Below are positions 1 to 41,052 of a stretch of 41,052 bases of DNA, piece by piece (the stretch's first letter is position 1; each line of letters starts with the position of its first letter). The notes under the pieces were generated by a model that saw only the letters and a list, made by a program, of their open reading frames with translations, did not search any database and was not told the DNA's origin. The position numbers and the translations under genes were made by a program. The stretch is from a virus (taxonomy: Duplodnaviria; Caudoviricetes): the IMG/VR virus record IMGVR_UViG_3300012002_000306, positions 1 through 41,052 of that record; one strand, 5' to 3'.

Positions 1-3
1 AAC

Positions 4-237
4 ATGAACTATAAAGAATTACATATTTTACAACATTCTCTTGGATTGAGACCCGGACAAAATGGGCATCGAAATTATTTTGTTACCGGCGAAGGATCAG
101 AGGATTACCCTGTCTGTGAAACCTTGGTACACAAGGGATACATGACCAAAGCTATCGATCCACTTAATGAGATGGAAAAAGAATATGTTTACAGAGTCAC
201 TGAAAGTGGTAAAAAGGCAGCGGAAGGAGAGGAGTAG
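4..237 (+). CDS. Small phage hypothetical protein, possibly winged-helix-like
   Basis: 77 aa ORF; a diverged second copy at 40412-40645 keeps the frame and most residues, which supports coding. Confidence 0.75.
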   Translation: MNYKELHILQHSLGLRPGQNGHRNYFVTGEGSEDYPVCETLVHKGYMTKAIDPLNEMEKEYVYRVTESGKKAAEGEE

Positions 238-238
238 C

Positions 239-514
239 ATGGACGCAGGATATCCAACAAGCGAGGAATTACAAACACTTACTCTATGGCCAGCCTGTGA
301 TTTTTTAGGGCCATTAGAGTATATGCGCGACCGCTGGCGGTGGAAAGACTATATATCAAATACTGATGATACTTGTCATGTCCATACCGGCGGGTGGTCG
401 GGACACAAGGAAATGCTTGATGCGTTAGAAAAGAACTTTGGGTGGTGGAAAAAATATTGGTACTCGACCACACGAGGCGGGCGTTATGTGTTTAAAAAGC
501 AGGCTAATTTTTAG
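239..514 (+). CDS. Hypothetical protein (Trp-rich, HTGGWSG motif)
   Basis: ATG at 239 after GGAGAGGAG, inside track ORF 167..514. Confidence 0.65.
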   Translation: MDAGYPTSEELQTLTLWPACDFLGPLEYMRDRWRWKDYISNTDDTCHVHTGGWSGHKEMLDALEKNFGWWKKYWYSTTRGGRYVFKKQANF

Positions 515-1838: not shown

Positions 1839-2045
1839 ATGAGACAGTCAGACAGAGAGCGGTTAAAGCAAGGACTAAAGCGGCGGGCAAAAAAACATTC
1901 GCAGGAAGAGGCGAAAGAGTACTACGTCGGGGCGTGCAAATGGCTGAAAGCCGAGGGGCGCATGATGGCGGATGAGTACGCCGAATGGCTGCGCGTTATC
2001 GGGAAAAGAGCACAGCGGACCGAGCAGCTGGAGCTCTTCGTATAG
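1839..2045 (+). CDS. Hypothetical protein
   Basis: 68 aa ORF with GGTGG RBS, in the operon direction. Confidence 0.55.
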   Translation: MRQSDRERLKQGLKRRAKKHSQEEAKEYYVGACKWLKAEGRMMADEYAEWLRVIGKRAQRTEQLELFV

Positions 2046-2070
2046 AACAAAAAAGAAACTGGGAGGAACG

Positions 2071-3252
2071 ATGGCAGATGACGGGACAAAACAACGATAT
2101 ATAAGCACATCAATATGGGATGATGACTGGTTTTATTCACTAGATGACGCTGGGCAGAAACTATATTTCTATCTTCTTACAAACAGAGAAACGAACGTCG
2201 CCGGTGTATATCAGATTACGAAAAGCCGCATGCAGAGAGATTTGAAATGGGACAAGGAAAAGTTGGAATCTGCATTATTAACATTTGAGGAAGAAAAAAA
2301 AGCTTATTACAGATGTGGGTATATAATGCTTCCCAATGCTCCAAAGCATCAAAAATGGTGGAAAAGGGGAACGATAAAAGCAGCTATAATGTCCATATTA
2401 AAATCTTTATCTGATGAAGTTTTTGAAATATTGCTTTCAGAAGAAGTGAAATACCAGTTTGATTTGAGCATCATCAAGAGAGATAAAAGAAAAAAAAGAC
2501 AGATTATTAGCGATAACTTAAAGGAAAAAATACATAAAAAATATCAAAATAAATGCGCTGAATGCGATTCTGGTGAAGGATTGGTAATCGATCATATAAT
2601 ACCCGTTTCAGAGGGGGGAGATAATACAGAAGATAATTTACAGCTATTATGCAGAAAATGCCATGGTAAAAAGCATGCTGAGAGAAGATGGGAGGCAGAG
2701 TATATAGAAACTGGAGGAGAATGGGGTACGCCCGATGGGGTGCTATGGGGTGCAGATGGGGTGCATGAAAAAGACGTCGAACGCGTGACACCCATAGCAC
2801 CCTATAACCCCAATAGCCTCCCTAGCGATCATGACTTTGATTCTGATTCTGATTCTGAAGATATATCTTTATCTAGCACGGTCAGTGAGCGGTTTGAAAA
2901 GGCCCGGAAAGCATGGAACGGCGCTAACCTGCCGAAATATCCATATTCAGCTCTCAACACACCTCCGGACGACATGCGGCTGTGTATACCGACGTTCGAC
3001 GCACACACTGACGTAGACATCGTTAAGGCTATCAGTAACTACCAGAAGATACGTGACGGCACAGGGTTCCACCTGGATCCGGTATATCAGAGTTTTATCG
3101 GTTTCATGAAGGCAGGGAAGGGCGTTGATAAGTATGCGGATGACGCAGAACCGTTCATTCGCTGCAAGTTAAACGGGACGAAACCCGCGAGGAAGGACCA
3201 GACCATGGAAGCGGCAAGGGAAGTATATGATATTTTGAGGAGGAACGCATGA
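2071..3252 (+). CDS. Phage replication initiator-like protein with an internal HNH endonuclease domain
   Basis: N-terminus QRYISTSIWDDDWF...LYFYLLTN...AGVYQI is typical of phage replication proteins; CAEC...DHIIPVSEGGDNTEDNLQLLCRKCH is an HNH motif; GGAGG RBS before ATG 2071. Confidence 0.78.
   Translation: MADDGTKQRYISTSIWDDDWFYSLDDAGQKLYFYLLTNRETNVAGVYQITKSRMQRDLKWDKEKLESALLTFEEEKKAYYRCGYIMLPNAPKHQKWWKRGTIKAAIMSILKSLSDEVFEILLSEEVKYQFDLSIIKRDKRKKRQIISDNLKEKIHKKYQNKCAECDSGEGLVIDHIIPVSEGGDNTEDNLQLLCRKCHGKKHAERRWEAEYIETGGEWGTPDGVLWGADGVHEKDVERVTPIAPYNPNSLPSDHDFDSDSDSEDISLSSTVSERFEKARKAWNGANLPKYPYSALNTPPDDMRLCIPTFDAHTDVDIVKAISNYQKIRDGTGFHLDPVYQSFIGFMKAGKGVDKYADDAEPFIRCKLNGTKPARKDQTMEAAREVYDILRRNA
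2721..2858. repeat. Candidate replication origin iterons inside the initiator gene
   Basis: ATGGGGTRC at 2721, 2735, 2745 and 2756; perfect 12-bp inverted repeat GGGTGCTATGGG (2738-2749)/CCCATAGCACCC (2791-2802); (GATTCT)3 from 2839. Confidence 0.55.
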
Positions 3253-3599: not shown

Positions 3600-4085
3600 A
3601 TGAGAAAGTGCACGATATGTGAGCATCCAAAGGTCAGTGAAATAAACCGTCACTTGATCGAACATATCGTTACTTATCGTCATATCGCCGATAAGTATAA
3701 CGTTTCGTATGCGGCCTTGCGACGGCATCGGGACCAGCACTTGACCGAGAAGGCTGTTGCCGCACGGGAGAAGAATGACAACGAACGGGACGTTGCACAG
3801 GGGGACACGGTCCTCGAGTCTCTGCTGATGCTGAAAGAGAAGGCCCTCGGGATCCTGAAGCGGGCTGAAGAGGATGAGAAGCCGGGGATCCAGCTGTCGA
3901 GCATTCGAGAGGCCAGGGCGTGTATCCAGGTGTTCGGGGATATGACGTTGAAGCTCAAAGAGATCGAGCAACACGACGTCACGAAGAACCCTGAGTTTAT
4001 ACGGTTCACCAGGGCCCTGGCGGTTGTCTGGAAGAAATATCCGGAAGCAGAGAAGCACTTTAAGGAAATATTGCGTGAAAGCTGA
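3600..4085 (+). CDS. Probable terminase small subunit (Zn/HTH N-terminus)
   Basis: CTICEHP...YRHIADKYNVSYAALRRH HTH-like segment directly upstream of the terminase ATPase. Confidence 0.65.
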   Translation: MRKCTICEHPKVSEINRHLIEHIVTYRHIADKYNVSYAALRRHRDQHLTEKAVAAREKNDNERDVAQGDTVLESLLMLKEKALGILKRAEEDEKPGIQLSSIREARACIQVFGDMTLKLKEIEQHDVTKNPEFIRFTRALAVVWKKYPEAEKHFKEILRES

Positions 4086-4089
4086 GCAA

Positions 4090-4866
4090 ATGGCGGACTA
4101 TGTGACAAAGCTCTCACGACCGACTGAGCTGTCGAAGTCTTTAAACATACATCCGGACCCCTGGCAGGCTGAGTTTATGGACACTGACAACGAGCGTATT
4201 ATCCTCTGCTGCGGGCGGCAGGTCGGAAAAAGCACGGCGGTTGCCATGCGAGTCCTTCACCGCATGTTTACGCCGGGAAGTCTGGTACTGATCGTTTCAC
4301 CGACAGAGCGGCAGTCGAAGCTTCTTTTTGCAACGGTAAAGCACTTTGCGAGCCAGATCGAGGGAATGCCAGGATCGACCGAGGACACAAAGCTGTCCCT
4401 CATGCTCGACAACGGGTCGAATGTGGTCGCACTGCCGGGCACCGAGAAGAATATCCGTGGTTTCGCGGCACTGGACACGCTGGTGGTCGATGAGGCGGCA
4501 CGAGTAGAGGATGCACTGTACATGGCTGCAGAGCCGATGGTGGCAATCTCCCGGGGGACGGTTATCCTGCTCTCGACACCGTTTGGTAAGCGTGGTTTTT
4601 TCTGGGAGGTCTGGGACAAAGGCACGTCCTGGAGCAAGCATCACATAACGGCGTATGACTGCCCACGGTACGATCGGAAATATCTTGACGGCAAAAAAGA
4701 GATGATGCCGGACCTGTGGTTCAGACAGGAATATATGGCCGAATTCGTAGACGCGGAGAATCAGCTGTTTTCACTTGATGACATACAGGCTGCGTTCCGT
4801 CGGACGGTTAAGCCGTTGGACTTCGGGGACGTCAAGACCAGCGGCGTAAAGCCTTTGGAGGTATAA
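4090..4866 (+). CDS. terL: Terminase large subunit, ATPase half
   Basis: PDPWQ, Walker A CGRQVGKST, Walker B LVVDEAA, coupling motif LLSTP, FRQEYMAEF. Start position is uncertain. Confidence 0.9.
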   Translation: MADYVTKLSRPTELSKSLNIHPDPWQAEFMDTDNERIILCCGRQVGKSTAVAMRVLHRMFTPGSLVLIVSPTERQSKLLFATVKHFASQIEGMPGSTEDTKLSLMLDNGSNVVALPGTEKNIRGFAALDTLVVDEAARVEDALYMAAEPMVAISRGTVILLSTPFGKRGFFWEVWDKGTSWSKHHITAYDCPRYDRKYLDGKKEMMPDLWFRQEYMAEFVDAENQLFSLDDIQAAFRRTVKPLDFGDVKTSGVKPLEV

Positions 4867-5546
4867 TGTATCTGATAGGAATAGATTTAGGGCAGGCGCA
4901 GGACTACACGGCCATCACGATCACGGAGAAGACGTTGATCGAAAAAGAGATATCGGCGTTACCCGGGCAGGACGCGGAGCGGGTGTATGATACAAGGTAC
5001 TTCCTGCGGTTTATCGAGAGGCCGGGCCTCGGGACCTCGTACCCGGATATCGTGAGCAGGGTCCGCGGCATATGCGAGCATCCGGACATCCGGCGGGACT
5101 TCCGGCTCATTGTGGACTCAACGGGTGTCGGGAAGCCGGTCGTCGACATGTTGCGACGGGAAGGCCTTTTGCCGATACCGATACTCATCACCGGCGGTAC
5201 GCAAGTGGTCGAGGACCCGCTCGGAGGCTATCACGTACCGAAGAGAGACCTGGCCTATGCGCTGCAGGTTGTCTTCCAGTCACGGCGCATACAGATAGCC
5301 GACGGTCTACGGGATGCCGATACGTTCTCTCTCGAGCTGCAGAACTTCCGGGTGAAGATGGATAAGCGGACAGCGCACGACAGTTATGAGGCGTGGCGCG
5401 AGGGAGAGCACGACGACATCGTCCTGTCGGTGGCCATGTCGGTGTGGTACGGCGAGAAGGACCACGGGAGCTATTTCTCTGTCGTGGACAGGGTCGGAGA
5501 GCCTGCGGACGACTACGATCCGCTTACCTGGGGGTTGAAGAGATGA
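4866..5546 (+). CDS. Terminase large subunit, RNase H-like nuclease half
   Basis: IGIDLGQAQDYTA, VDSTGVGKPVVD, HDDIVLSVA; has its own GGAGG RBS and TAATG overlap. Confidence 0.85.
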   Translation: MYLIGIDLGQAQDYTAITITEKTLIEKEISALPGQDAERVYDTRYFLRFIERPGLGTSYPDIVSRVRGICEHPDIRRDFRLIVDSTGVGKPVVDMLRREGLLPIPILITGGTQVVEDPLGGYHVPKRDLAYALQVVFQSRRIQIADGLRDADTFSLELQNFRVKMDKRTAHDSYEAWREGEHDDIVLSVAMSVWYGEKDHGSYFSVVDRVGEPADDYDPLTWGLKR

Positions 5547-6226
5547 TACTCATCCTTGGATGCGGAAGAAGCGGCACTCACCTGTTGGCAGATGTGATGG
5601 ATGGACCGGACACGATTGTCGCAAAAGAAGACCCGCGGTGGTTCGAGCTGGCCCTGGCCATGGTGCGGAACAAGGCGGTTGTGCCGAAATATTACCCTCG
5701 GTTTGCAGAGATGCTCTGCAGGGAGCACGAGGCTGCACGGGCGGACGGGAAGGTGTTTGTCGACAAAACACACGTTGCCGCGTGGCTGTTTGAGTGGCTG
5801 GCAAAGGACCTGCCGCTCTACACTATTTGGATAGAGCGTGATCCACTGCCGACGATAGCAAGCATGATGTGTCATGCTGGCATGAGAAACGATCTTCGGT
5901 ATGCTCGGTGCTTTTCGGTTCCGAATCGATACATGGGCATTGAAGATGAGCGGTGGTTTGACATGCCGATGGTGCTCTGTTTTGCACACAAGTGGAAATC
6001 GTACCATCGTAGACTGATCGAGCTGTACGGCCGGATAGACCATTTTGTGAGATACGAGGAGCTTCTGCAGCATCCGGAGCGGGAGATAACGGTGATAGAA
6101 GAGAAGTTCGGCATACGCTGTTCCAGGCCGGAGATGCGGTTGGAAAGCCTGTCGAAGTGGCAGCAGATACTCACCCAGGGAGCGGTGAGCGAAATAAACG
6201 AAGTATTGGAGGAGAATATTGAGTAA
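5543..6226 (+). CDS. Sulfotransferase-family protein
   Basis: ILILGCGRSGTH PAPS-binding loop, FVDKT, IERDP...S, VRYEELLQHP, SLSKWQ. Confidence 0.85.
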   Translation: MILILGCGRSGTHLLADVMDGPDTIVAKEDPRWFELALAMVRNKAVVPKYYPRFAEMLCREHEAARADGKVFVDKTHVAAWLFEWLAKDLPLYTIWIERDPLPTIASMMCHAGMRNDLRYARCFSVPNRYMGIEDERWFDMPMVLCFAHKWKSYHRRLIELYGRIDHFVRYEELLQHPEREITVIEEKFGIRCSRPEMRLESLSKWQQILTQGAVSEINEVLEENIE

Positions 6227-6824
6227 CATAAACACAAAAGAGCATTGGGATCATGCGTATCTGGCGGAGGGGGCGAATACCTGGCGACGGTATCAGGGTT
6301 GTTTTTCTCGCATCGTCAACCGCGTTGGTCCTGGGCAACAGGTTCTCGACGTAGGTGGTGGTGTCGGCGTGCTGTCACACTACCTAAAACAGGCAGGGAG
6401 CTTTCCGTTCATCGTTGACATTTCACCGGTTGCTATACAGATAGCACAGACGGTATACGACATTCCGGGCAGGGCGCAGAAGGTCCCGCCGATGAAGAAT
6501 ATCATTGCATACGACTGGCTGGTGGCGACCGAGTTCTTAGAGCACTTAACGAATCCGGGCGGTTTTCTCTTTGAGGCAAAGACAAAGGCGCCGAGAGCTA
6601 TTTACAGCGTGCCGAATAACGTACTCGGGCCGGACGAGGAGCCGGAGCACCTGCGGAAATTCACGGAGAAGAAGTTTCGGGCTCTGCTGCAAGGGTACTA
6701 CACGAAGGTGGAGATCGAGAGCTTCCGTGACCGGTTCTATACCGGGCGGGTGACGATGAGAGACAAGGAAGTTGTGCCGAGTGCTATCGACTTACCGACG
6801 CTCATTGCGTATTGCGAGGTGTAA
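6219..6824 (+). CDS. Class I SAM-dependent methyltransferase
   Basis: VLDVGGGVG motif I, VDISP, ATEFLEHL, YSVPN; TTG start with GGAGG RBS. Confidence 0.88.
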   Translation: MSNINTKEHWDHAYLAEGANTWRRYQGCFSRIVNRVGPGQQVLDVGGGVGVLSHYLKQAGSFPFIVDISPVAIQIAQTVYDIPGRAQKVPPMKNIIAYDWLVATEFLEHLTNPGGFLFEAKTKAPRAIYSVPNNVLGPDEEPEHLRKFTEKKFRALLQGYYTKVEIESFRDRFYTGRVTMRDKEVVPSAIDLPTLIAYCEV

Positions 6825-19492: not shown

Positions 19493-22400
19493 TGTCTGAT
19501 ATTCAACTGTTTACCAGAGAGGAAGCGCTTGAAGGGACGATATCACAGTTCCGCCCGACAGAGAACGAATATCCTCAAAAGAAGAAGTTTCGTCTCATGC
19601 CCGAGATTAAACCTTTTGTATTCAACAACGTGCCGGAGCCAGGGACCAAGGAAGCCGACCTATGGCGGCAGACCGAGTCCATGCCGAACCCGGAGGAAGA
19701 ACGGGCACGCATAGACGTTGCCATGGCTTTTTCCAACGCTACGGACATCGAGTTCGAGACCGCGTATCAAAACGTGGACTCCTTAATAGAAGTCATGGCG
19801 AACGGCGGCAGAGGTGGTGGGAGGGAATACATGGAGATGAAGGCGACCGAGGCGAGAGAGTACCTAGGAAGCATGCACGAGATCGGGCAACTGATAACCA
19901 AGCGTGGAAGACTCGGGTTCGATATGCTGCAGAACGGTGTAGACGAAGAAAAACTCGAGTTAAGTCAGGAGCTGGATCAGGAAATGCAAAAGCTCTATGA
20001 GCAGGAAACAGAGAACCCGTTTCTCTGGGCAGTCGGGCAGGCGGCAAACATGTGGCCGATGATGTTTGAAGGCATGAAGAAAGGTGCACAGAGAGGTGCC
20101 GGGCTTGCGGCCTCTTTTGCCGGAGCCGCCGCAGCCGCAGGACAGGTGCCCCCCTTAACCGTTGTGCCGGAAGAAATCGCCACGGTCCCCGGGGCTGCGA
20201 TCGCAGGGTTCTCCGTCGGTATGGCCTGGGGGACAGCGGAGTCAACATTCCACGTTGAGGGGGGCAACTTCTTCATGGACATGGTGAATGAAGGAGTCGA
20301 TCCAGATATAGCGCAGTGGGCCGCCCTTGGCGGCGGGTTCCTCTCTGCACTCGTCGAGACGGTACAGGTAAACCAGATCCTCTCAAACCTTCCGGGGCTT
20401 GAGAATATCGTCCGCTCGAACATCGGAAAGGTAGTTAAGGAAGCTGCAGGGAAGGTAACAAAGTCTTCCGCCGGGAAACTTGCGCTTACCTACGGCATGA
20501 ACGTTGCCACAGAGACCGGAGAGGAGGTTATACAGGAAGTTATACAGATTGCCTCGGAAGACCTCGTAAAACGAGTGAACAACCAGGTCCACGGGACGGA
20601 GTACGAGGGCGCATGGCAGGACGCTATCCCGAGGATCATGGAAACGGCGAAGTCGTCTGCGGCGGGACTTTCTGTTATCGGCCTACCCGGTCTAGTCGGG
20701 AACGCGATGACCGTGAATGTACGGGAACTCAGAGATACCAAGCCGAGAGAGCAGGTGGAAAAACTCTATGACGAAGTGGCACAGGACCTGACGCCCGAGG
20801 ATAAAAAAGAAGTAAACGCACGGTTAGGGATGGACGTCTACGCAGAGATCCGCGTGCTCGAAGAAGAAAAGGCGAAGCTTGAGGAGAAGTACGCAGACCA
20901 GCCGACCGTATTGGCCGCAGAGCTTATCAAGAACCAGCGGGAGATTGATTTCCTGCGGGACCAGAAGTTTAAAGAAGAGGTAAAGAAAAACCCGAAGCCA
21001 TGGATGATGACCAGAACAGAATGGGAGTCGACGATTGACGAGCGGGTACAGCAGCGCGGAGAGCTTATCTTTTCCGATGAGTTCAAGCAGCGGATAGCGG
21101 ACAATATGCCGCAGCTTGCAGAGGAAGAAGTAGAAGGGGCCGCCATTCTCGTCCAACTCAGAGCTGAGGCACTAGGGATGACCCGCGACCAGTATCTCTC
21201 GACCACCTTCCAGCCGCAGATCTTTGCTGAACAGGACCGGACCCGGGGCGTTATGAAGCAGGAGAGTAGGGGCGCTATTGAGTTTACCGAAGACGCGAAG
21301 GCTCTGTTTCATGCGACTAAGGCGAGTGACTTCTCTACGTTTGCCCATGAGATGGCCCACGTATGGCGGAAGGAGCTCATGGGAGAAGACCTTCGAGCTG
21401 CCGAAGAATGGGCCGGTGTGAAGGAAGGGACCTGGACAAGGGAGGCAGAGGAGAAGTTTGCCAAACACTTTGAGAGATACCTGCAGGAAGGATACGCTCC
21501 GAGTGAGCAGCTTCGGAGTGTATTTCAGAAGTTTGCTGAGTGGATGCGGAAAGTGTTTGCCTATATCGGGGAACGGTGGGACCTGTCACCGGAGATACGG
21601 GGCGTGTACGATCGCCTGTTTGCCCCTGGCCAGAAAGCGCAGCAGTTGCAGGGCGAAGGAGTGCTTTATCAGGAAGTAAATAACACCTCGATAGACAGCT
21701 ACCAGTTGTCTGATAAATGGACATTCAAGAACGTTCACCGTGACTATCATCACGGACAAAATGATTATATCGCCGGTTTGCTGGACGATTCCGGAGAAGT
21801 TGTTTCTCAAGTAGCCTATTCGATATTTGATGAGGAGATACACGTAAACATGATAGAGACCTTTCCTGAATACCAACGGCAAGGTGCTGCTCGTGAGCTT
21901 TTAGTCCGTATCAGGAAAGAAAATGAAGGAATGCCGATTGAACCGGGTATGCAGACAGAAACGGGCGCAGCCCTTGTCCAGGACATGACCGAGAGAAACA
22001 TCCTTTTCCAGCCAGCTCCGCCGGTAGACAGTGAAGCTTTCAAAAAATGGTTCGGCGATAGCAAGGTCGTCGACGAGAATGGTGACCCTTTGGTGGTCTA
22101 TCATGGGACTGATAAGTTTTTTGACGAGTTTGACAACTGGCTCCCCAACTTTTTTACAGAAACAAAAGAATATACCAAAGGTTTCGGGGACAAGCAGATG
22201 GCGGCATACCTTAGCATACAAAGGCCCTTCGATCCGGAAAATGATAAAACAGCTAGGAAGATGTACAATGATGAATTTGTCCCCTGGGCGAAAGAAACAT
22301 ATCGGGACAACAAAAGATATACCTCTCTGACGAAGGACGAAAAGGTCCCTTTTACAACAGCCAATACTTTGTTTGTTTTTTTAAGGAGAAAGCAGAGAGA

Positions 22401-25400
22401 GGACCCTTCGTTCCGGTACGACGGGATCCTCATTGATGAGCATATCGGTGAGGTGACCGCATGGGTCCCCTTGCAGAACACCCAAATAAAGTCAGTCCAC
22501 AACAAAGGCACATGGGACCAGGACAATCCTAACATCCTCTTCCAGCCAGCTCCGCCGGTAGACAGTGAAGCTTTCAGAAAGTGGTTTGGTGACAGTAAGG
22601 TGGTTGACGAGAACGGGGACCCGCTGGTTGTTTATCATGGCGGGGCAACCGAGACATCTGCGTTCCGGTCGGAGTCAAGCAGAGGGAACATGGGGGCCGC
22701 CTATTTCACCGACGACCCTTTTGTTGCGTCAGCTTATGCCGTGCTGGGAGGTATTGATGACAGCTACACTGCAGACGAAGCATCATTGCAGTTGTTTGGC
22801 GAAGACCCGATGGAGGAGGGAAGATCGGGGAGAATAACTCCGGCCTTTTTATCGATCAGCAAACCTATAGATCCGGCATCAGCAACTCAAATCACAAGCG
22901 ATATGTTGCTGGAGTTCTACAAAAGCGAATTGTCCGGGTGGATCAAAGAGGAAGAGTTTCAGGGGACAAAGAAAGAATACGTTGAACAGCTTCTCGAGAA
23001 AGACCCGTTTCGGGGTATGATAGAGTATGACGGGATATCGTTAGGAGATGATGTCTCGGCTGCGTTTGCAACGCTATTATATAAAGAAGATCTGAAAAGT
23101 TTTATGGCCGAGTACGGTTATGACGGCGTTATCTACGAAGACTTGGAAGCCGGAGGCAAGACCTACATACCCTTGAACCCCGAACAGATAAAGTCAGTCT
23201 ATAACAAGGGCGTTTGGGACCCGGACAGTCCGAATATTCTCTACAAAGACTTCTCACACCGCGACTCCGTCCGTGAAGCAGTGGAGGCCGGATTGCCGGT
23301 CCCCGATAACGTCCTGCAGGAATACGCTGACGAAGACTGGGCACAGGAAGAATTCCGTACCAGGAGCGAATACGCGGCAGACGCTATCACTTTCGAAACG
23401 ATGGACCAGTATGTGTCCTTCGCTCAGTCGATGGATCCGCAGGGTCGACCAGCCTCGTACCATGAGTACATTTACAATCAGTCGAAGATGAAGGCGGACC
23501 CCAGCCGGGGTACAGACCAGTTAAGCCTTACCATCGGCAACCAAAAGTTCGTTGAATCTGTGACAAAACCTGTGTTGGTTGGTTACTTGCAAGAGGCCAT
23601 CAGGCGGGGCAGCATCCAGGGCCTACACGGTGTTATCCAGACGGCAGCGAAAGCCGCAGTCAAAAACAATGACATAACGGATGCACACTATAAGAAGGCC
23701 ATGGACCAGATCAAGGCCGACCCTGCTTATTACCGTGAAGATTTCGCTATATTGCTCGAAGACACTGAAGAGCTTGCACAAATGCAGAGGGAACGGGAAG
23801 CAGACCCGGCTGCAGCCGAGATCGAGGAACTACAGCGGAACCTCTCACAGACCAGGGCAGACCTGCGGAAGTCAAAGGAAAGACTTGGCAGTTATCAGGA
23901 CCGCATTTACAACCTGGACGCACGGGTTGATTATTGGACGAGGGAGCACGAGAAACGGAAACGGGAACTGAAAGAGTTTGCAGCTGAGATTGAAGAGGCA
24001 GAGAAAGACGCGACGAAGTCCGCACGGCAGGAAGCACGGCTGCAGAAGGAACAGGCAGTCAAAGAAGCGAAACAGCAAATGCGGGAAGCGCAGAAGGCGA
24101 AGAAGCAGGCAAAAGATGCCCGAGACTATTTTAAGAAGGTGGTGTCTCGTATCATGAAACCCCCTTCTGCAGCGATCGCCTGGGATAAGGCTCAGAGGAT
24201 CAAAGAAATACAGGGAGGACTCGCGGTCAAGGGCCCCCGCGCCCAGGAGTATATCGACCGGCAGCATCTAAAACGAGTGATAGACAAGAACCCGGACGCG
24301 GGATATCCGGCAGAAGTCTTAAAGGAAGCAAACCGGGTCAGCGTGCATGATCTCACGATAGACGACATAGAAAACATATACGACGAGGTCAAGTCACTGC
24401 GGAACATGGGGCGCCTCGAAAAAGACATCATGGACCTTGAAGAACGGATATGGATTGACCAGCACATCAACTCGATATTTAAGACGGTCACCGGCGGGTA
24501 CCCACCTACAGACAAAAATGTTGGAAGTGTAGAGGCAAAAGAGGCCCGGAGGACCCCGGCGGGGAAGAAGGCGAAGTATCTGTTTATGCGCCCGGACCGT
24601 GTCGTCGAAGTGTTAGGCGGCGGCCCTTTTAAGAAGCTGTTCAGAGACTACATAAACGACGCCCAGGACAGTGAACTGGTCGAACTCAATCGCAGATATG
24701 AGATTGCCCAGGACATGATGAAAAGTCTTGACATTGCTCCGGCAGAGTTGGGACGGCTTCTCCAGGCCGACGGGGCGGAATATACCGTCGATGACGTTAT
24801 CCATATGTGGATTGCGCTGCAGGACGAGGACTCGGAAGCGACCCTCTACAACGGAAACAATATCGACCCGGACACCGTGGACAGCCTGGTCTCCCAACTC
24901 GAGGAGAAACATATCAGGTGGGGACAGTTTATGATGGACGAGTTTTCCGAAGAAAACTTCGAGCGTATTAACCAGATACTCAGAGAGACGGAAAACCGAG
25001 AGATGGTCAAGGTAGAGAAGTACTTCCCGATACGGCGGGCAGGCCAGAATATAGACTCGTTTAAGGACGAACTTAAGAACGAAATACTCGATCGGTATGC
25101 TTTGAAACGGGCATATCCTGGGAAAAAGTTTACTATCGAACGAACCCACAACGAAGGCGCGGCCCAGATACCGATGAGGCTTGGGGCAACGAATCTCTTC
25201 TTTGACCAGTTGCAGAAGCAAGAAAGCTTTATCGCGAAGGCGCAGCTTGCGAAACGACTGCACAGGATATTCCGGAACGAAGATGTTTCCCGGGCGATCC
25301 GGCAGAAATTCGGTGACGAGATGAACAACTGGGTTGAGAAATATATCAACGACTGGGTAAACCCGAACATCTACAAGGTAAACGATACCCTGCATCATGT

Positions 25401-26376
25401 ATCCAGGGTCCTCCGGTCGCATGCAGCGTTGTCATATTTAGGTTTTAACCTCTTGACGCCGCTTAAGCAGCTGCCTTCCCTCGCGTTTTTCCTGGCAGAT
25501 GCAGGCCCGTTCCATATGCTCGGGGCGGCCACGGAAATGCTATTCGACCGAAAGGAGACAAGAAGACTTATTGACGAGAGCGATCCGCAGGTCAAATACC
25601 GGTCCTTCGACCGAATAACCGAAGAGCTGAAACTGCAAGGCCGGGGCGCGTATGATCGGTTTGTTCAGAAAGTGGGAAAGGCCGGCATGTCCATGATCCA
25701 GTTTATGGACCGACAGGCGATATTAACCGGCTGGAAGGCTGTGTACAACAAAGCCAAGGCCGACGGCCTGAGCCATGAGGATGCCGTCAGGAAAGCAAAG
25801 GACGTAACACTCAGGACCCAGCCGCAGGCATCGGCCAAGGACCTTCCCCAGGCATACCGTACAAACGAAATTCTTAACTGGTTTCTGATGTTCAGCAATC
25901 AGCTCAACCAGATTTGGAACATGATTACCCATGATATTCCGCAGGACCTGAAAAACCGCAAATGGGGCCATGCCATGGGTACGACTTCGGCGGTGGTCAT
26001 CTCTGGTCTTATGATCGGCATGTTGAGCCGAAGACGTGTGCCTGACGAACCGGAAGAACTGTACGAAGATGTCAGAGATCAGCTGTTATCCGCTATTCCG
26101 GTTGTCGGCGGGAATATTAAGGCCGGAATATCCGGATGGTGGGGGACCGGTGTTGATCCGGTCCCGGTAGCCTCAGAGATCGGTGCGCTGATAAGGGATA
26201 TTGAACAGATAGCCAAAGACGACGCGGACATGGAGCTGCGCACGATACTCAGGGTGATTGAAAGCGCAATGGTGACCGGAGGACTGCCGACCGTGCAGCC
26301 TCGACGGACCATCAAGTCGATTATAAACGAGGACCCGTGGGAACTCATCGGGGGAACCTGGGGCGAGGAGGAATAA
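19492..26376 (+). CDS. Large polyvalent ejection protein (HExxH metallopeptidase-like, GNAT and two ADP-ribosyltransferase-like modules)
   Basis: TGATG overlap; FAHEMAHVW...EEKFA; IETFPEYQRQGAA; two copies of F.KWFGDSKVVDENGDPLVVYHG...YDG.I...QIKSV.NKG.WD. Confidence 0.82.
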   Translation: MSDIQLFTREEALEGTISQFRPTENEYPQKKKFRLMPEIKPFVFNNVPEPGTKEADLWRQTESMPNPEEERARIDVAMAFSNATDIEFETAYQNVDSLIEVMANGGRGGGREYMEMKATEAREYLGSMHEIGQLITKRGRLGFDMLQNGVDEEKLELSQELDQEMQKLYEQETENPFLWAVGQAANMWPMMFEGMKKGAQRGAGLAASFAGAAAAAGQVPPLTVVPEEIATVPGAAIAGFSVGMAWGTAESTFHVEGGNFFMDMVNEGVDPDIAQWAALGGGFLSALVETVQVNQILSNLPGLENIVRSNIGKVVKEAAGKVTKSSAGKLALTYGMNVATETGEEVIQEVIQIASEDLVKRVNNQVHGTEYEGAWQDAIPRIMETAKSSAAGLSVIGLPGLVGNAMTVNVRELRDTKPREQVEKLYDEVAQDLTPEDKKEVNARLGMDVYAEIRVLEEEKAKLEEKYADQPTVLAAELIKNQREIDFLRDQKFKEEVKKNPKPWMMTRTEWESTIDERVQQRGELIFSDEFKQRIADNMPQLAEEEVEGAAILVQLRAEALGMTRDQYLSTTFQPQIFAEQDRTRGVMKQESRGAIEFTEDAKALFHATKASDFSTFAHEMAHVWRKELMGEDLRAAEEWAGVKEGTWTREAEEKFAKHFERYLQEGYAPSEQLRSVFQKFAEWMRKVFAYIGERWDLSPEIRGVYDRLFAPGQKAQQLQGEGVLYQEVNNTSIDSYQLSDKWTFKNVHRDYHHGQNDYIAGLLDDSGEVVSQVAYSIFDEEIHVNMIETFPEYQRQGAARELLVRIRKENEGMPIEPGMQTETGAALVQDMTERNILFQPAPPVDSEAFKKWFGDSKVVDENGDPLVVYHGTDKFFDEFDNWLPNFFTETKEYTKGFGDKQMAAYLSIQRPFDPENDKTARKMYNDEFVPWAKETYRDNKRYTSLTKDEKVPFTTANTLFVFLRRKQREDPSFRYDGILIDEHIGEVTAWVPLQNTQIKSVHNKGTWDQDNPNILFQPAPPVDSEAFRKWFGDSKVVDENGDPLVVYHGGATETSAFRSESSRGNMGAAYFTDDPFVASAYAVLGGIDDSYTADEASLQLFGEDPMEEGRSGRITPAFLSISKPIDPASATQITSDMLLEFYKSELSGWIKEEEFQGTKKEYVEQLLEKDPFRGMIEYDGISLGDDVSAAFATLLYKEDLKSFMAEYGYDGVIYEDLEAGGKTYIPLNPEQIKSVYNKGVWDPDSPNILYKDFSHRDSVREAVEAGLPVPDNVLQEYADEDWAQEEFRTRSEYAADAITFETMDQYVSFAQSMDPQGRPASYHEYIYNQSKMKADPSRGTDQLSLTIGNQKFVESVTKPVLVGYLQEAIRRGSIQGLHGVIQTAAKAAVKNNDITDAHYKKAMDQIKADPAYYREDFAILLEDTEELAQMQREREADPAAAEIEELQRNLSQTRADLRKSKERLGSYQDRIYNLDARVDYWTREHEKRKRELKEFAAEIEEAEKDATKSARQEARLQKEQAVKEAKQQMREAQKAKKQAKDARDYFKKVVSRIMKPPSAAIAWDKAQRIKEIQGGLAVKGPRAQEYIDRQHLKRVIDKNPDAGYPAEVLKEANRVSVHDLTIDDIENIYDEVKSLRNMGRLEKDIMDLEERIWIDQHINSIFKTVTGGYPPTDKNVGSVEAKEARRTPAGKKAKYLFMRPDRVVEVLGGGPFKKLFRDYINDAQDSELVELNRRYEIAQDMMKSLDIAPAELGRLLQADGAEYTVDDVIHMWIALQDEDSEATLYNGNNIDPDTVDSLVSQLEEKHIRWGQFMMDEFSEENFERINQILRETENREMVKVEKYFPIRRAGQNIDSFKDELKNEILDRYALKRAYPGKKFTIERTHNEGAAQIPMRLGATNLFFDQLQKQESFIAKAQLAKRLHRIFRNEDVSRAIRQKFGDEMNNWVEKYINDWVNPNIYKVNDTLHHVSRVLRSHAALSYLGFNLLTPLKQLPSLAFFLADAGPFHMLGAATEMLFDRKETRRLIDESDPQVKYRSFDRITEELKLQGRGAYDRFVQKVGKAGMSMIQFMDRQAILTGWKAVYNKAKADGLSHEDAVRKAKDVTLRTQPQASAKDLPQAYRTNEILNWFLMFSNQLNQIWNMITHDIPQDLKNRKWGHAMGTTSAVVISGLMIGMLSRRRVPDEPEELYEDVRDQLLSAIPVVGGNIKAGISGWWGTGVDPVPVASEIGALIRDIEQIAKDDADMELRTILRVIESAMVTGGLPTVQPRRTIKSIINEDPWELIGGTWGEEE
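21997..22640 (+). repeat. Direct repeat of a domain-boundary sequence, offset 534 nt
   Basis: Copies start at 21997 and 22531, share the exact 37-mer TTCCAGCCAGCTCCGCCGGTAGACAGTGAAGCTTTCA and encode NILFQPAPPVDSEAF.KWFGDSKVVDENGDPLVVYHG. Confidence 0.9.
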
Positions 26377-26377
26377 T

Positions 26378-27973
26378 ATGGTAGAAGGCACGACAGACAG
26401 AGTATCTTACACATGCACGGGCGGGAAGGGGCCGTACGCTATTCCCTCGGACATGACCGTATCGTTGACCGCGCGGGGGAACGCAACGAACCTGAAGGTT
26501 ATCCTGGTTGACCCGGACGACGTTGAGAATACGTTGACGTTCTCGACGGAGTACACGGTCACGGGAAGGAACGTATACACGGTCTCGAACTATAGCAGCT
26601 CGTATACGCTGATAATAGCCCGGTCCATGCCGTTTACGCAGGAGAGGGACTTGCGGAACCAGAGTACCTTGAATATGGAGCACCTGGAGACCGCCTATGA
26701 CGCCGCCTGCATGGAACGGCGCGAGCTGTTAGAGCAGATAGGCCGACAGCTGGTGTTCCCGATATCAGACCCGGACGGGCTTAACTACGAGCTTCCGGTT
26801 GTATCGAACAGAGCCTCAAGATACCTTGCCTGCGACGCATCGGGGAATATTATTGCATCATCCGGGACAATAGGCAGTGTGCCGGTATCAACGTTTATGG
26901 AAGACCTTCTTGATGACACCACTGGCGCCGCCGCATTGACGACCCTGGGCGTTACCGCAACGCCGGAAGAGATGAACCGGGTTGCCGACGGGGTCACGGC
27001 AACGGCAGCGGAGGTGAATGAGGCTGCTGACCGATCGGCGCGGACAAAGCTTCTCAGTGAAGAAAACTACACTATCTTAGACGATGACGGGTATGCGGTA
27101 TTTCTCGTCGTGACAGGGGCCGGGATCACCGGAACGGCGACGACTGACACGGAAAATAAACTGATAGACTCTACCGCGACCTTCGTTACCGACGGGGTGG
27201 TAGCAGGAGACTATATTCACAATACGACTGACGACACCTGGGGAGTAGTCGATTCCGTTGACTCGGAAACAGAGCTGACCTTAACGACCGACGCATTTCC
27301 CGACGGAGACGAGGACTGGACCTGGGCGCCGGTCACGGTTGTACTGCCGACCGCAGCGGACAACACGGGAAGGGAGATATTCGTTAAGAAACTCGACTCG
27401 GATGACGGGGTCGTGCACATAGCCTTCGAAGCCGGTGAGGACGAGGTAGACGTGGCAGAGCTCACGAGCCAGCAGGGGCGACTCAGGATGATATCTAACG
27501 GCACGAACTGGTATCTGGTTGACTACTGGGATAAAACAGACTTGACTCTAGGAACCGGCTCTGCCGATCGTAATATTCAATTTGCTACTGACGCTAATCT
27601 GCTTTGGGATGAGAGTAGAGATGAGTTTTCTTTTGATAAACCATTTAATTATCCTGCGGGGCCAGTGTACAACGGAGGATTCAACGATCCACAGGAAACT
27701 GATATTTATGAAGCTATAGACGAATTTTTCCCGGCAGTTGATTATGCGCGTCCTGTTTTCGGCGGGTGCATGGAAGGTGGGGTTACTGCATATATGGCGA
27801 TCCATTTTACGCACGCAGTTAGAACAGCTACCACCGAGATCACATTATACGGTTGGGGGACAAGCCGTCAAAGCGATGGACAAGGTGTTGGGGCTGACCT
27901 GGTACAGATCCCGTGTGTTTATGGAGACACTGGTGATACAGGGTATGAAAGAATGAGAATAGTTATTTGGTAA
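26378..27973 (+). CDS. Tail fibre protein 1
   Basis: T7-gp17-like adaptor N-terminus (EYTVTG...R..PFTQ.RDL.NQ..L..EHLE.AYD); VVLPTAADNTGREIFVKK fibre motif. Confidence 0.8.
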   Translation: MVEGTTDRVSYTCTGGKGPYAIPSDMTVSLTARGNATNLKVILVDPDDVENTLTFSTEYTVTGRNVYTVSNYSSSYTLIIARSMPFTQERDLRNQSTLNMEHLETAYDAACMERRELLEQIGRQLVFPISDPDGLNYELPVVSNRASRYLACDASGNIIASSGTIGSVPVSTFMEDLLDDTTGAAALTTLGVTATPEEMNRVADGVTATAAEVNEAADRSARTKLLSEENYTILDDDGYAVFLVVTGAGITGTATTDTENKLIDSTATFVTDGVVAGDYIHNTTDDTWGVVDSVDSETELTLTTDAFPDGDEDWTWAPVTVVLPTAADNTGREIFVKKLDSDDGVVHIAFEAGEDEVDVAELTSQQGRLRMISNGTNWYLVDYWDKTDLTLGTGSADRNIQFATDANLLWDESRDEFSFDKPFNYPAGPVYNGGFNDPQETDIYEAIDEFFPAVDYARPVFGGCMEGGVTAYMAIHFTHAVRTATTEITLYGWGTSRQSDGQGVGADLVQIPCVYGDTGDTGYERMRIVIW

Positions 27974-28377: not shown

Positions 28378-29823
28378 ATGGTACCTGGAACAACGACAAA
28401 AGTAACGCTCACCGGAAACGGGGACGGGCCGTATCCGATCCCATCCGGCATGACCGTGAACCTGGACGTGGACGGAAACGCCACCGACCTCATCGTAACG
28501 CTGACCGACTCGGCGGGGGCTGAAACAACGCTGACGCTTACCACCGACTACACTGTGACCGGCAGAAACGTCTACACCGTGGAAGAATACGACAGCACCT
28601 ACACCATCACGATATCACGGGACTTAGACTACACGCAGGAACGGAACCTTCGTAACCAGAGCACGCTAAACATGGAACACCTTGAATCGGCGTTTGATGA
28701 AGCGTGCATGGAACGGCAGGACCTTCACGCGCAGCTGAACAGGCAGATAGCCGCGCCGATGTCGGACGACTCGCCGGACATGGAACTACCGCCTGCTGCT
28801 CTTCGCAAAAGTCAGTTTATGGCCTTCGACTCCGACGGCAACGTAACGGTATCCGAAGGCACCGGGACACCGGCTAGTGCTGCCTGGGCCGACGTGATAG
28901 AGGAGCTTACCATAGCCGCCGGGCTCGTGGACGCAGGCATAACGGCGAGCGTGGCAGAGCTGAATAATGTTTGTGACGGGGCGACCGTAAGCGCGGCCGA
29001 ACTGAACGCAATGTATATGCTCGGTGACATCAAGTACTCATTCAACCCGAACATCGGGGCGGCACACGGGTTCCTGCCATTTGGCTCCGATGCGGTAAGT
29101 CAGACCGGGGACTACGCTGACCTGTATGCCGTTGTCGGCGACATGTTCGAGGCGGCGTATACCGGCTTAGGCTATGCGGCGAGCGGTGCGGGAATGTTTT
29201 ACCCTGCTCCTCCTCCGCAGTTATTTCCCCGGGCGGCGATACCGAGAGTGGCGGTCGCTGCGGCTGACTTCGACAATGCAAACGATCGTATCGACGATGA
29301 CGACTCTTTAACGTCCGGCGTGGCTCCGTTTCATATTCATCGAGATGGTACGGCGGTTCGGTTTAGTGCGGGTGACGGCACACTCCCGGCGGGCATTACC
29401 GAGGGGACAGTTTACTATGCTCGGAAGGTGAACAGCGACCAGGCTATTGAGTTATGGACAACGGAAGCGGCGGCTGTCAGCGGAAGCGGAACGCAGGTAA
29501 CAGACTTTTCCGGTGCGTCCGGTACAGTGTATATGTACAATGCAGGGCTGTATGTCGCTGATGCGATGCAACGGATCACAGGTTCTTTTTCTACAGAAAC
29601 CTACAACGAAAATGCTTTGCGATCTTTTGATAGTGCTGATGGCGCTATGAGCACAAACGGTTCTGGAGGAGGGGCTCAAGGGCCTTCTTACGAAAGCGGC
29701 ACAGGTTATAGACAGCCTGAGATTGATTTCGATTCTGCTGACTCCCCCGATGCCCGAACAACCAACGAAAGCCGTGCTGAAAACATCCTGCTCTACGGTT
29801 ATATCAAAGCAAAGGCGGTGTGA
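28378..29823 (+). CDS. Tail fibre protein 2
   Basis: N-terminal ~150 aa are paralogous to fibre 1; collar-like LGDIKY...YADLYAVVG; DAMQRITG...ESRAENI C-terminus. Confidence 0.8.
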   Translation: MVPGTTTKVTLTGNGDGPYPIPSGMTVNLDVDGNATDLIVTLTDSAGAETTLTLTTDYTVTGRNVYTVEEYDSTYTITISRDLDYTQERNLRNQSTLNMEHLESAFDEACMERQDLHAQLNRQIAAPMSDDSPDMELPPAALRKSQFMAFDSDGNVTVSEGTGTPASAAWADVIEELTIAAGLVDAGITASVAELNNVCDGATVSAAELNAMYMLGDIKYSFNPNIGAAHGFLPFGSDAVSQTGDYADLYAVVGDMFEAAYTGLGYAASGAGMFYPAPPPQLFPRAAIPRVAVAAADFDNANDRIDDDDSLTSGVAPFHIHRDGTAVRFSAGDGTLPAGITEGTVYYARKVNSDQAIELWTTEAAAVSGSGTQVTDFSGASGTVYMYNAGLYVADAMQRITGSFSTETYNENALRSFDSADGAMSTNGSGGGAQGPSYESGTGYRQPEIDFDSADSPDARTTNESRAENILLYGYIKAKAV

Positions 29824-32559: not shown

Positions 32560-32589
32560 TTGACAAAAGATACGAAATGCATGTATAAT
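32560..32589 (+). promoter_or_regulatory. Strong rightward sigma70 promoter (early operon)
   Basis: TTGACA-N18-TATAAT with an A/T-rich upstream tract. Confidence 0.8.
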
Positions 32590-32760: not shown

Positions 32761-32789
32761 ATTCTACATAACACCATAAAATTTGTCAA
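32761..32789 (-). promoter_or_regulatory. Leftward sigma70 promoter facing the rightward one
   Basis: Minus strand reads TTGACA-N17-TAGAAT. Confidence 0.7.
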
Positions 32790-32968: not shown

Positions 32969-33376
32969 GTGAAGGAACTTACCGGTAGAGAAATCGTTAA
33001 CGCGCTTGAGAGCGCGAAGAGAACGAACGATGTTTTAACCGCGATTATCGAACAGCTTGAGCCAGATGCAGAATTTGGCCGACTTGCTAAGCAGGATGAA
33101 ACTACATTCAGCATGAAAGAGGCTGCCGATCTTCTCGAAAAGAAAACCGGGCTAGGAAGAAACAAATTGATGGAATGGCTTCGATATGAGGGCGTTCTGC
33201 TTTCTTCTGAGAATTACAAAAACCAACCGGCGCGGACATATATCGACAGCGGATATTTCTCGAAAGCGGAAAAAGAAACGCCTGTAGGGATGAAGATGGT
33301 TACCGTTGTCACAAACAAGGGCATCGATTTCATATTGAGACTTTGGGAAAAGCATAGAGCGGAGGTAGAGGGGTGA
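32969..33376 (+). CDS. Phage antirepressor, KilAC/ANT domain
   Basis: LEPDAEF, FSMKEAADLL, GLGRNKLMEWLR, NQP...YIDSGYF, TVVTNKGIDFI; GTG start. Confidence 0.88.
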   Translation: MKELTGREIVNALESAKRTNDVLTAIIEQLEPDAEFGRLAKQDETTFSMKEAADLLEKKTGLGRNKLMEWLRYEGVLLSSENYKNQPARTYIDSGYFSKAEKETPVGMKMVTVVTNKGIDFILRLWEKHRAEVEG

Positions 33377-34101
33377 TTGACACAGTAATGATTGATCGAT
33401 CAAAGAGAATCATCGAATGCCATAACGGAATACACAGCTCTATGAAACAGGCCCTTGATTATGCACTCGAAGCTGGGCGGCTATTAACAGAGGCAAAAGA
33501 AGAGTTGAACCACGGAGGGTTCCTCCCGTGGCTGAAAGAGAATATGCCGTTTTCTGAGGATACCGCAGAGCGGTATATGAAGCTTAACAAACATCTCGAC
33601 AAAATCCGCACAGTGCGGAATTTGCAGGAAGCTTACCACCAAATAGAAACCATCGAGGCGCAGGAAAAGAAACGGAGGGAACAAGAAAACCGGCAAAAGA
33701 TACAGCAGTTCGAAGAAACCGGAGACAAGCCGGAAACATGGGATCGGTCCACGGACTACCAGTACAAAAAAGACAAAGATGACCGGGAGTTTGAAGAACA
33801 GAAACAGACCGCCTTCCGCGAAAAAGAAGAGAAAGCGAAAAAGCATTATAGCAAAGAAGAAATCAGCGAAGCAATAAAAAACGCCGAGAGGGTGAGTGCC
33901 GAATTAGAAAAGCACGCACACCTAAACCTTTCATCTTATGCGGACACGGCCAGCCAAACTTCGATGTTCGCGGCTATCGAGTTTTATTTGAATTCCTTCG
34001 AAGGTGTGAGCTCCCAGCTGGAAGCGGCACACAACCTGATAAAGAAGCTAAAAATGATCGTTAATGAATTACAAGTCAAATCTGTGGAGATAGAGACGTG
34101 A
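33373..34101 (+). CDS. DUF3102-like domain protein with charged helical C-terminus
   Basis: ALEAGRLLTEAKEELNHGGFLPWLKENMPFSEDTAERYMKL; the stop codon abuts the repeat array. Confidence 0.8.
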   Translation: MIDTVMIDRSKRIIECHNGIHSSMKQALDYALEAGRLLTEAKEELNHGGFLPWLKENMPFSEDTAERYMKLNKHLDKIRTVRNLQEAYHQIETIEAQEKKRREQENRQKIQQFEETGDKPETWDRSTDYQYKKDKDDREFEEQKQTAFREKEEKAKKHYSKEEISEAIKNAERVSAELEKHAHLNLSSYADTASQTSMFAAIEFYLNSFEGVSSQLEAAHNLIKKLKMIVNELQVKSVEIET

Positions 34102-34441
34102 CCACGGAACGAGAGCGAGCCAGGGAACAAGAGAAAACCATGTCTGGTGAGCGAGCCAGGAAAGCGGAGAAAACCATTAGTGTAGAGCGGGCCAATATGC
34201 TGGAGAAGACCATGCAGACAGAGCGAGCCAACATTACTGAGAAAACCATGTTGTGAGAGCGAGTCAAGAAAAGTGAGGTAACCATGACGACGGAGCGGGC
34301 CAAGCGAAAAGAGGAAACCAGTCTTTGTGAGCGAGCCGACGGCATTGAGCAAACCATCTCCAAAGAGCGGGCCATCGAGCCAGAGAAAACCAAGTGGGCC
34401 GAGCGAGCCATTCATTTTGAGAAAACCAAAATGCTTGAGCG
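34101..34441 (+). repeat. TIGR-like dual-repeat/dual-spacer array: a half unit plus nine 36-nt units (putative guide RNA precursor)
   Basis: Unit consensus AGCCA-N9-AGAAAACCA-N9-AGCG at exact 36-nt spacing (34118, 34154, 34190, 34226, 34262, 34298, 34334, 34370, 34406); all spacers are different. Confidence 0.9.
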
Positions 34442-34449
34442 TAATTTCA

Positions 34450-34484
34450 GCCCGGCGGTTCTACCTCCGGCCGTCGGGCACTTT
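34450..34484 (+). terminator. GC-rich hairpin closing the array (terminator or processing signal)
   Basis: GCCCGGCGG (34450-34458) pairs with CCGTCGGGC (34471-34479); followed by ACTTT. Confidence 0.55.
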
Positions 34485-40201: not shown

Positions 40202-40410
40202 GCGTTGGTATTTTCAGAATAGACGAGCTTGTCGAAAAGAATAAACTAGACGAGCTTGTCGAAAAAGATAAACAGCTAGCAAGACGGCTCGTAGAAGAAA
40301 ATAGGCAGCTGAAAGAGTTCTTAAAACTCATTCATGAAAACAGATTTGAAATCGATAAACTGTATCTTTTCGCTGAAAGGGCAAAGGGGTACTTTGCTGA
40401 GGAGCAATAA
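40198..40410 (+). CDS. Hypothetical coiled-coil protein with a 27-nt tandem duplication
   Basis: AGGAGG RBS; 40220-40246 and 40247-40273 are near-identical (DELVEK twice). Confidence 0.62.
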   Translation: MSVGIFRIDELVEKNKLDELVEKDKQLARRLVEENRQLKEFLKLIHENRFEIDKLYLFAERAKGYFAEEQ

Positions 40411-40411
40411 C

Positions 40412-40645
40412 ATGAACTATAAAGAATTACATATTTTACAACATTCTCTTGGATTGAGACCCAGACAAAATGGAAATCGAAACTATTTTGTTACCGGCGA
40501 AGGAACAGAAGATTACCCCATATGTGAGGAGTTAGTATGTAAAGGATACATGACCAAAGCTATCGATCCATTGAATGAGATGGAAAGAGATTATGTTTAC
40601 AGAGTTACTGAAAAAGGTAAAGAAGTAGCCACTAAGGAGAAATAA
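40412..40645 (+). CDS. Diverged second copy of the gene at 4..237
   Basis: Same 77-aa frame; nucleotide-identical up to 40462, then many substitutions. Confidence 0.75.
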   Translation: MNYKELHILQHSLGLRPRQNGNRNYFVTGEGTEDYPICEELVCKGYMTKAIDPLNEMERDYVYRVTEKGKEVATKEK

Positions 40646-40647
40646 AA

Positions 40648-40881
40648 ATGGGATTCGGTAATGAAGAATATATTGGAAGGTTAGAACAAGAAAATAAAAT
40701 GTTAAAAGAAAAACTAAATAATCAAACATATAATCAATATATACAGAAATGCCCTGTTTGTAATGGAACTGGACTAGTATCAAGACCACCAGGAGTAGCA
40801 GGAGATGTAGAAACTTTCCCCACAACTTCTGCCGGTCCATGGCCTTGCAGAGCATGTAATGGAACCGGAATTATAGGATAA
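40648..40881 (+). CDS. DnaJ-type Zn-finger small protein
   Basis: CPVCNGTG and CRACNGTG; AAGGAG RBS. Confidence 0.7.
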   Translation: MGFGNEEYIGRLEQENKMLKEKLNNQTYNQYIQKCPVCNGTGLVSRPPGVAGDVETFPTTSAGPWPCRACNGTGIIG

Positions 40882-40902
40882 TTAATAAGAAGGAGGAGTT
40901 TA

Positions 40903-41052
40903 ATGAAAGAAATACATGTAGAAGGGATTAAATGTCCGAAGTGTAGTAACTCTAAGATAGATTTTAAATATGAATCTTACGGTAACATCAGATATTATGT
41001 TTGTAAAAGATGTGGGCATAAATGGAACGAGAAAAAAGAAAAAAGTGAATAA
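40903..41052 (+). CDS. Zn-ribbon small protein (49 aa, not in ORF track)
   Basis: AGGAGG RBS; CPKC...CKRCGHKW; the stop codon is at the last base of the window. Confidence 0.65.
   Translation: MKEIHVEGIKCPKCSNSKIDFKYESYGNIRYYVCKRCGHKWNEKKEKSE

Follow-up and report, generated by a model that had tools for sequence, protein, structure and literature searches.

A dual-repeat TIGR-type array in a closed phage genome with no detectable tas gene

What is a guide RNA array doing in a phage genome that carries no detectable gene for the protein expected to use it? The question is raised by a tract of short alternating repeats in the window, the term used here for the whole 41,052-nt stretch of IMG/VR record IMGVR_UViG_3300012002_000306 (Duplodnaviria; Caudoviricetes) that was analysed. 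The first-pass annotation had read the tract as a TIGR-like guide RNA array, and the strict 36-nt period, nine A/B spacer pairs and leading half unit that it described were all present in the sequence. The nine units occupy positions 34113–34441 of the plus strand, each consisting of an edge repeat (GAGCGRGCCA, 10 nt), spacer A (8 nt), a loop repeat (GAGAAAACCA, 10 nt) and spacer B (8 nt), and a 3′-truncated edge, GAGCG, forms the 3′ end of the array at 34441. Ahead of them lies the half unit (34095–34112, plus strand), comprising a degenerate loop-like repeat, which overlaps the stop codon of a DUF3102 gene and includes a box C CCA at 34102–34104, followed by a single 8-nt spacer, with the 5′ end of the array falling mid-unit. 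With the register set by the SpTasH and TaTasR guides and by a repeat-profile scan, nine 36-nt tigRNAs are predicted between 34118 and 34441 (plus strand), with starts at 34118, 34154, 34190, 34226, 34262, 34298, 34334, 34370 and 34406, their processing being likewise a prediction.

Lag-36 identity measured in 300-nt windows reached its maximum of 0.63 at the array, compared with a mean of 0.275 (sd 0.036) for the whole window, and identity there at lags 35 and 37 was only 0.25–0.26. A profile built on 421 edge and 500 loop repeats from other arrays scored the nine units at 22.7–37.8 bits, and since the best site elsewhere reached 6.5 bits, the window contains neither a second array nor a lone unit. 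The 18 spacers exhibited a mean pairwise identity of 0.26 (maximum 6/8) and there were no indels across the nine units, results which bear out the earlier statement that every spacer is unique and all lengths are invariant. The spacer length itself had to be revised: the last base of each supposed ~9-nt spacer proved to be an invariant G (18 of 18 cases) and hence belongs to the repeat, the repeats being 10 nt and the spacers 8 nt long. SpTasH is similarly reported to pair over 8 bp per spacer (bioRxiv 2026.08.11.744272), and by the SpTasH rule the 18-bp target sites envisaged earlier are reduced to 16 bp.

The repeats were not fully invariant, with nine substitutions over the 17 repeats scored, eight of them at non-pairing positions, and a further C-to-T substitution that retains a G-U pair. 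Box C (CCA) was present in 16 of the 18 edge and loop repeats of the nine units, and box D (AG) in all 18. Each of the nine edges carries the C4 and G7 that form an extra base pair, the loop interior being A-rich; among 421 edges of other arrays the corresponding pair was C-G in 413 and U-G in four. Among the features by which dual-repeat TIGR arrays are recognised, alternating repeats of 8–12 nt, variable spacers of 8–9 nt, between five and 15 units and a 36-nt unit were thus found. A CRISPR array, which the first-pass annotation had already set aside, was rejected on the grounds that a single 25–36-nt repeat with spacers of similar length is absent. An Rfam search returned no match at the array.

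The same periodicity could in principle encode a 12-aa repeat peptide of the form ERA-x3-EKT-x3, and detection of such a peptide had been named at the outset as an outcome that would count against an array. The relevant frame contains only one stop over the nine units, and the A/G variation of the edge is synonymous in it. That stop (34254–34256) is nevertheless in frame, no Pfam match was obtained, and over 36 loci stops made up 87 of 1548 free codons (5.6%, expected 5.7%), at least one being present in 27 of the 36, a frequency at expectation that renders a peptide exceedingly improbable.

Comparison with published TIGR sequences indicated that the unit layout matches that of the SpTasH guide (Table S3 of PMC12045711), which belongs to the SpTIGR array described from Salicola phage CGphi29 with TasH as its effector (Faure et al. 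2025, PMC12045711). The two arrays share a 36-nt unit, an AGCCA start, two 8-nt spacers, a 10-nt loop repeat and an AGCG end, together with box C CCA, box D AG and a tolerance of C-to-U in the edge. They differ in the first base of the repeat (A in SpTIGR, G in the phage array), in the loop interiors, and in that SpTIGR is accompanied by TasH whereas the present genome has neither TasH nor any other detectable tas gene. The array is also akin to dual-repeat TIGR-TasA loci with tasParB, represented by those described in PMC12045711 and by our loci L002, L005 and L016, which also have 10-nt repeats; in the latter three the consensus repeats are identical to those of the phage array and the placement in a phage early operon is the same, and L005 has a KilAC–DUF3102 module in common with the array phage. 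These TIGR-TasA loci carry both tasA and tasParB, however, and the genome of the array phage carries neither. Three 10-nt repeat motifs do not occur in the text supplements of PMC12045711, of which Figures S4, S8 and S14 and Table S1 may list the class.

A scan of IMG/VR for the repeat pattern yielded 42 loci on 35 contigs, in 26 of which a Tas-family gene, one of them a stub, was located within the fetched flank. These genes constitute a single protein family, and the match of the L002 member to the solved TasH (E 1e-13) identifies the family neighbouring the arrays as Tas proteins. Together with the SpTasH-like architecture, this recurrent association upholds the initial reading of the locus as a TIGR array. 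The commonest partner of repeats of this class was a nuclease-less TasA; a parB-like gene lay near the array in 10 of the 35 contigs, and a DUF3102 gene in one. Equivalent searches of GTDB located 19 array loci, 18 of which were parsed; 10 of these 18 had a flanking tas gene. The nine IMG/VR contigs with no flanking tas comprised one with a distant tas (G006), five fragments, and three near-complete records with no tas (G001, G005 and G007), the core boxes of which showed no deviation in 197 positions. The distant gene is a divergent tas (L034; G006, 23133–23927) lying some 60 kb from a cluster of 25 array units. At another locus (L028; G010, 26328–26420) tas has been reduced to a C-terminal stub adjoining a seven-unit array.

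With regard to the host, portal relatives (E about 1e-80) were present in three of 401 Spirochaetota genomes, and four of the 19 GTDB array loci were in Spirochaete MAGs, data which are suggestive of a host among the Spirochaetota and fall short of an assignment. No close relatives of the phage were found by single-protein scans with DUF3102 and ERF or by searches of GenBank phages, and the array pattern was absent from all 19 records and genomes related through DUF3102 or portal proteins, in a search run with no positive control.

The absence of tas was supported by several kinds of search. A Tas profile gave a best E value of 0.43 against the six frames of the genome, and nothing was found in frames read through stops; the profile was built from 23 Tas proteins of the very array-neighbour family that it then detects, and a very distant Nop could escape it. 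Positive controls gave E values of about 1e-104 for G011 and G012, both in the training set, and 3e-29 for the untrained G006. When the whole genome was searched with the Tas alignment and with the IS110 and Nop families (PF02371 and PF01798), there were likewise no matches, the family controls for these searches being positive in 12/14 and 5/14 genomes. The one tblastn match of note was between the HNH domain of a single TasH-like query and an unrelated HNH gene. The genome thus has no detectable tas gene, and the effector that a TIGR-Tas system requires was not found. Judged by its sequence, the locus qualifies as a dual-repeat TIGR array and falls short of a TIGR-Tas system. The first-pass annotation had described a phage-encoded guide repertoire: the TIGR array in that description is confirmed, but the repertoire is not self-contained, the lack of tas having gone unnoticed.

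A tas gene situated in DNA missing from the record might explain this result, and the record is indeed labelled a provirus of 69% completeness (CheckV), while a 44,595-bp contig encoding the same proteins has an extra 3.5 kb outside the reach of the tas search. Assembly data nonetheless make this highly improbable. Window positions 1–54 are identical to 40409–40462; a 22,277-bp contig (run X3) spans from 40167 across the join to 22035, with the offset that a circle of 40,408 bp requires; and the dominant contigs at 40433–40621 have the sequence of the window start, running on into window 214–243. Contigs of even depth cover 13000–40432, with no joints among those at the dominant depth, and extend over the circular join, and the final 590 window bases correspond to a contig about 10 times shallower. 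In these closing assemblies, which derive from three runs of one sample that is possibly the source of the record, the phage genome closes as a 40,408-bp circle, and both the provirus label and the completeness of 69% look like assembly artefacts. The terminal part of the window (40409–41052) includes about 590 bases from a minor related strain present at roughly one tenth of the depth.

Among the assembly contigs, no array variant was listed. Elsewhere, contig depth halves at 29313–29481, and at 29807 a further contig diverges; positions 29020–29807, inside the gene for a 481-aa putative tail fibre, are a variable region in the population. Other features of the genome include sulfotransferase and methyltransferase genes between those for terminase and portal (5393–6824), repeats of 110 and 73 nt inside the gene for a 2300-aa virion protein (21997–23242), and a protein of 426 aa (1972–3252) that has an HNH domain at its centre and whose N-terminal part shares 44% identity over 123 aa with a gene product near the tas-less array of L036.

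The array is part of a rightward early operon headed by a sigma-70-type promoter-like site (32560–32589, plus strand) in which TTGACA and TATAAT are separated by 18 nt, a match to consensus at 12 of 12 positions. Four promoter-like sites were counted in the region against a shuffle mean of 4.6, this one being the perfect match, and it probably drives transcription of the array. The promoter-like sites at 32761–32789 (minus strand; near-perfect) and 32560–32589 are opposed across the control region, which separates leftward regulators from the early operon. Downstream follow a KilAC antirepressor gene (PF03374; 32969–33376, plus strand) and, directly 5′ of the array, the DUF3102 gene (242 aa; 33373–34101, plus strand). 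Just 3′ of the array a GC-rich hairpin of 11 bp (34450–34479, plus strand) is followed by only three T; with a z score of −1.36, within the shuffle range, and no flag from the terminator caller, it would be at best a weak or leaky terminator, where dual-repeat TIGR arrays are described as having truncated terminal edge repeats and an intrinsic terminator downstream.

The position of DUF3102 invites the idea that it is a new, non-Nop effector for the array guides. The DUF3102 stop codon and the first bases of the array overlap, an arrangement common for tas genes, and at L005 homologues of KilAC and DUF3102, the latter 1 kb before the array, precede the order array–parB–tasA–array. The predicted model (pLDDT 84, pTM 0.53) has coiled coils beyond an N-terminal HTH-like fold, for which the best matches, all middling, were Spo0J (Z 7.7, rmsd 2.9, 83 aligned), KorB (Z 6.1) and ParB (Z 5.8), with no Nop or Tas chain in the top 50 fold matches; over residues 1–98, the only part in which the comparison is well tested, the N-terminus (window 33373–33670) is predicted to adopt a ParB/Spo0J/KorB-like helix-turn-helix, a DNA-binding fold. 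Against an effector role, however, alignment of the DUF3102 and Tas profiles (hhalign) gave a probability of 0.1% and an E value of 0.58, and no Tas occurred among the PDB sequence matches of the protein. Neither an array nor tas lay beside any of 11 DUF3102 loci (nine distinct, four on contigs below 3.2 kb), a set that excludes the surroundings of the closest relatives (59–83% identity); the companion gene is instead KilAC, which precedes it in five of the 11, and the single array-bearing contig with DUF3102 nearby has its own tasA. DUF3102 appears unrelated to Tas at any detectable level; in all likelihood it is an early regulator of the ordinary sort, a role as guide effector being very unlikely.

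If the gene is genuinely absent, a route by which it could have been lost is illustrated by two other records. In array-strand orientation, L016 has the order array–tasA–parB–array (3944–6356), and L006 a single four-unit array (3980–4174) with perfect repeats and no tas in the 89-kb record; the flanks of the two are 97% and 94% identical and no spacers are in common. This pair shows how arrays can lose tasA–parB, and the array phage has likely lost a tasA(–parB) cassette in the same manner, an argument made by analogy because a tas-bearing close relative of the phage was not found. Core box positions of the phage array deviated in 1 of 109 cases compared with 8 of 61 at other repeat positions (Fisher p 0.001). 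The corresponding figure for tas-linked arrays was 64/4565, in a comparison set for which the pattern search favoured perfect repeats, and the phage boxes are as intact as theirs. Intact boxes are compatible with continued use or with recent loss alike.

Possible targets were sought for each unit. In the canonical contiguous geometry (gap 0) no unit matched the phage genome with two or fewer mismatches, and when gaps of −1 to 2 were admitted the only near-match of any unit was that of unit 9 to 32575–32592 (minus strand), a match of 14/16 with a 2-bp gap lying over the −10 box of the operon promoter. Both mismatches fall at spacer position 7, which appears to be within the TasR seed and so counts against the match; TasR reportedly tolerates a gap of 1–2 bp, a 2-bp gap being non-canonical. 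Some such match occurred in 211 of 400 shuffled arrays, in only two of which it overlapped either strong promoter, and 8 of 6000 shuffles matched the 72-bp promoter region, a region picked post hoc once the unit 9 match was known. In IMG/VR, unit 9 had about 460 exact matches, and none of the 120 fetched shared a protein with the phage. Among distant relatives (41 loci, 252 kb) no unit matched with one mismatch or fewer.

Over 387 units from 36 loci, self-matches with two or fewer mismatches numbered 1–5 per geometry, and general self-targeting by such arrays was rejected, control geometries falling in the same range. Promoter-overlapping matches numbered eight against about six in shuffles, those with a 2-bp gap five against about two, and within 250 nt of the arrays no gap class stood out. 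At L006, spacer A of the last unit matches 8/8 in a promoter-like region ~27–37 nt upstream of the array and, with spacer B included, 13/16 with a 2-bp gap, a layout as for unit 9 that is within chance overall. No target of any unit is distinguishable from chance; the competing elements or host genes suggested in the first-pass annotation are at most candidate targets, and the unit 9 match to the −10 box is to be regarded as a lead, its status as a target not being established by the chance comparison.

Such results could be expected of an inert remnant, in which tas was recently lost and a functionless array has yet to decay. Cassettes do get lost, as both the L006/L016 pair and the L028 stub attest; dual-repeat guides are reported to require Tas for maturation (bioRxiv 10.64898/2026.09.09.750476); and no perfect target was found. 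This explanation is possible but somewhat doubtful, given that the nine units contain no indel and deviate in their core no more than tas-linked arrays, that the tas-less L006 array has perfect repeats while sharing no spacer with its tas-bearing relative, and that at least three further near-complete records likewise carry an array and no tas.

Alternatively, the transcript might act as a decoy that soaks up a competitor's Tas, as RNA anti-CRISPRs do with Cas, with the spacer sequences irrelevant. An early-operon position under a consensus promoter, intact boxes and the lack of targets would all suit that purpose, for which PMC10651486 provides a CRISPR precedent. More generally, the Cas-less viral CRISPR mini-arrays and RNA anti-CRISPRs described there and in bioRxiv 10.1101/2024.10.29.618823 are, as here, guide-like phage RNAs with no effector of their own; they are described as acting on or through the protein of another element, whereas for the phage array this is only proposed, and they differ from it in RNA architecture and effector family. 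A decoy is nonetheless unlikely: nine units with 18 different full-length spacers resemble a repertoire, and the CRISPR decoys have been described as solitary repeats.

The explanation favoured over a remnant, a decoy, a DUF3102 effector, missing DNA or a peptide is that an intact TIGR array, left behind by loss of tas, acts in trans with the Tas of a co-resident element, and we consider that it has about an even chance of being correct. Loss of the tasA(–parB) cassette would leave the array intact, and the early promoter would transcribe it; a compatible Tas from a hypothetical donor element in the same cell, no such donor having come to light in the host or the sample, would then process the transcript and load the guides, the Tas dimer cutting each edge repeat, according to the published mechanism, to release nine 36-nt guides. 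At a 16-bp site, spacer A of each guide would pair with one strand and spacer B with the other, and with a nuclease-less TasA as the partner, a protein reported to repress transcription, the outcome would be binding and transcriptional repression. A far more specific version, in which unit 9 directs a borrowed co-resident TasA either to the −10 box of the early promoter that the phage itself carries or to sister-phage promoters, is quite unlikely even when both forms are taken jointly, the sister-phage form supposing a matching promoter that differs from the phage's own at two positions.

Arrays of this kind are already known, and the array with no tas is what is new within the literature searched. 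TIGRFinder is described as confining its search to the surroundings of tas loci, so that tas-less arrays lie outside its design. A literature search, with subscription journals, bioRxiv supplements and the supplementary PDF of PMC12045711 outside its scope, found no description of tas-less TIGR arrays, and the word 'orphan' does not occur in the accessible text of the two main TIGR papers. The array-less compact TasR branch (Xu et al. 2026, bioRxiv 10.64898/2026.09.09.750476), reported as a protein with no array, is the mirror image of the array-only phage.

Catalogues of TIGR arrays have to date drawn on the neighbourhoods of tas genes alone, and the literature available describes the natural targets and roles of these arrays as undecided. 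As a mere remnant, the present array would be nothing more unusual than what cassette loss ordinarily leaves behind. Should the specific, improbable reading of unit 9 prove true, the array would constitute an RNA sensor that alters early transcription when a Tas-bearing competitor is co-resident, and unit 9 would be directed at one of the first natural TIGR targets. With a closed tas-less genome, three similar records and the L006/L016 pair now available, the sharing or hijacking of guides between mobile elements becomes a testable proposition.
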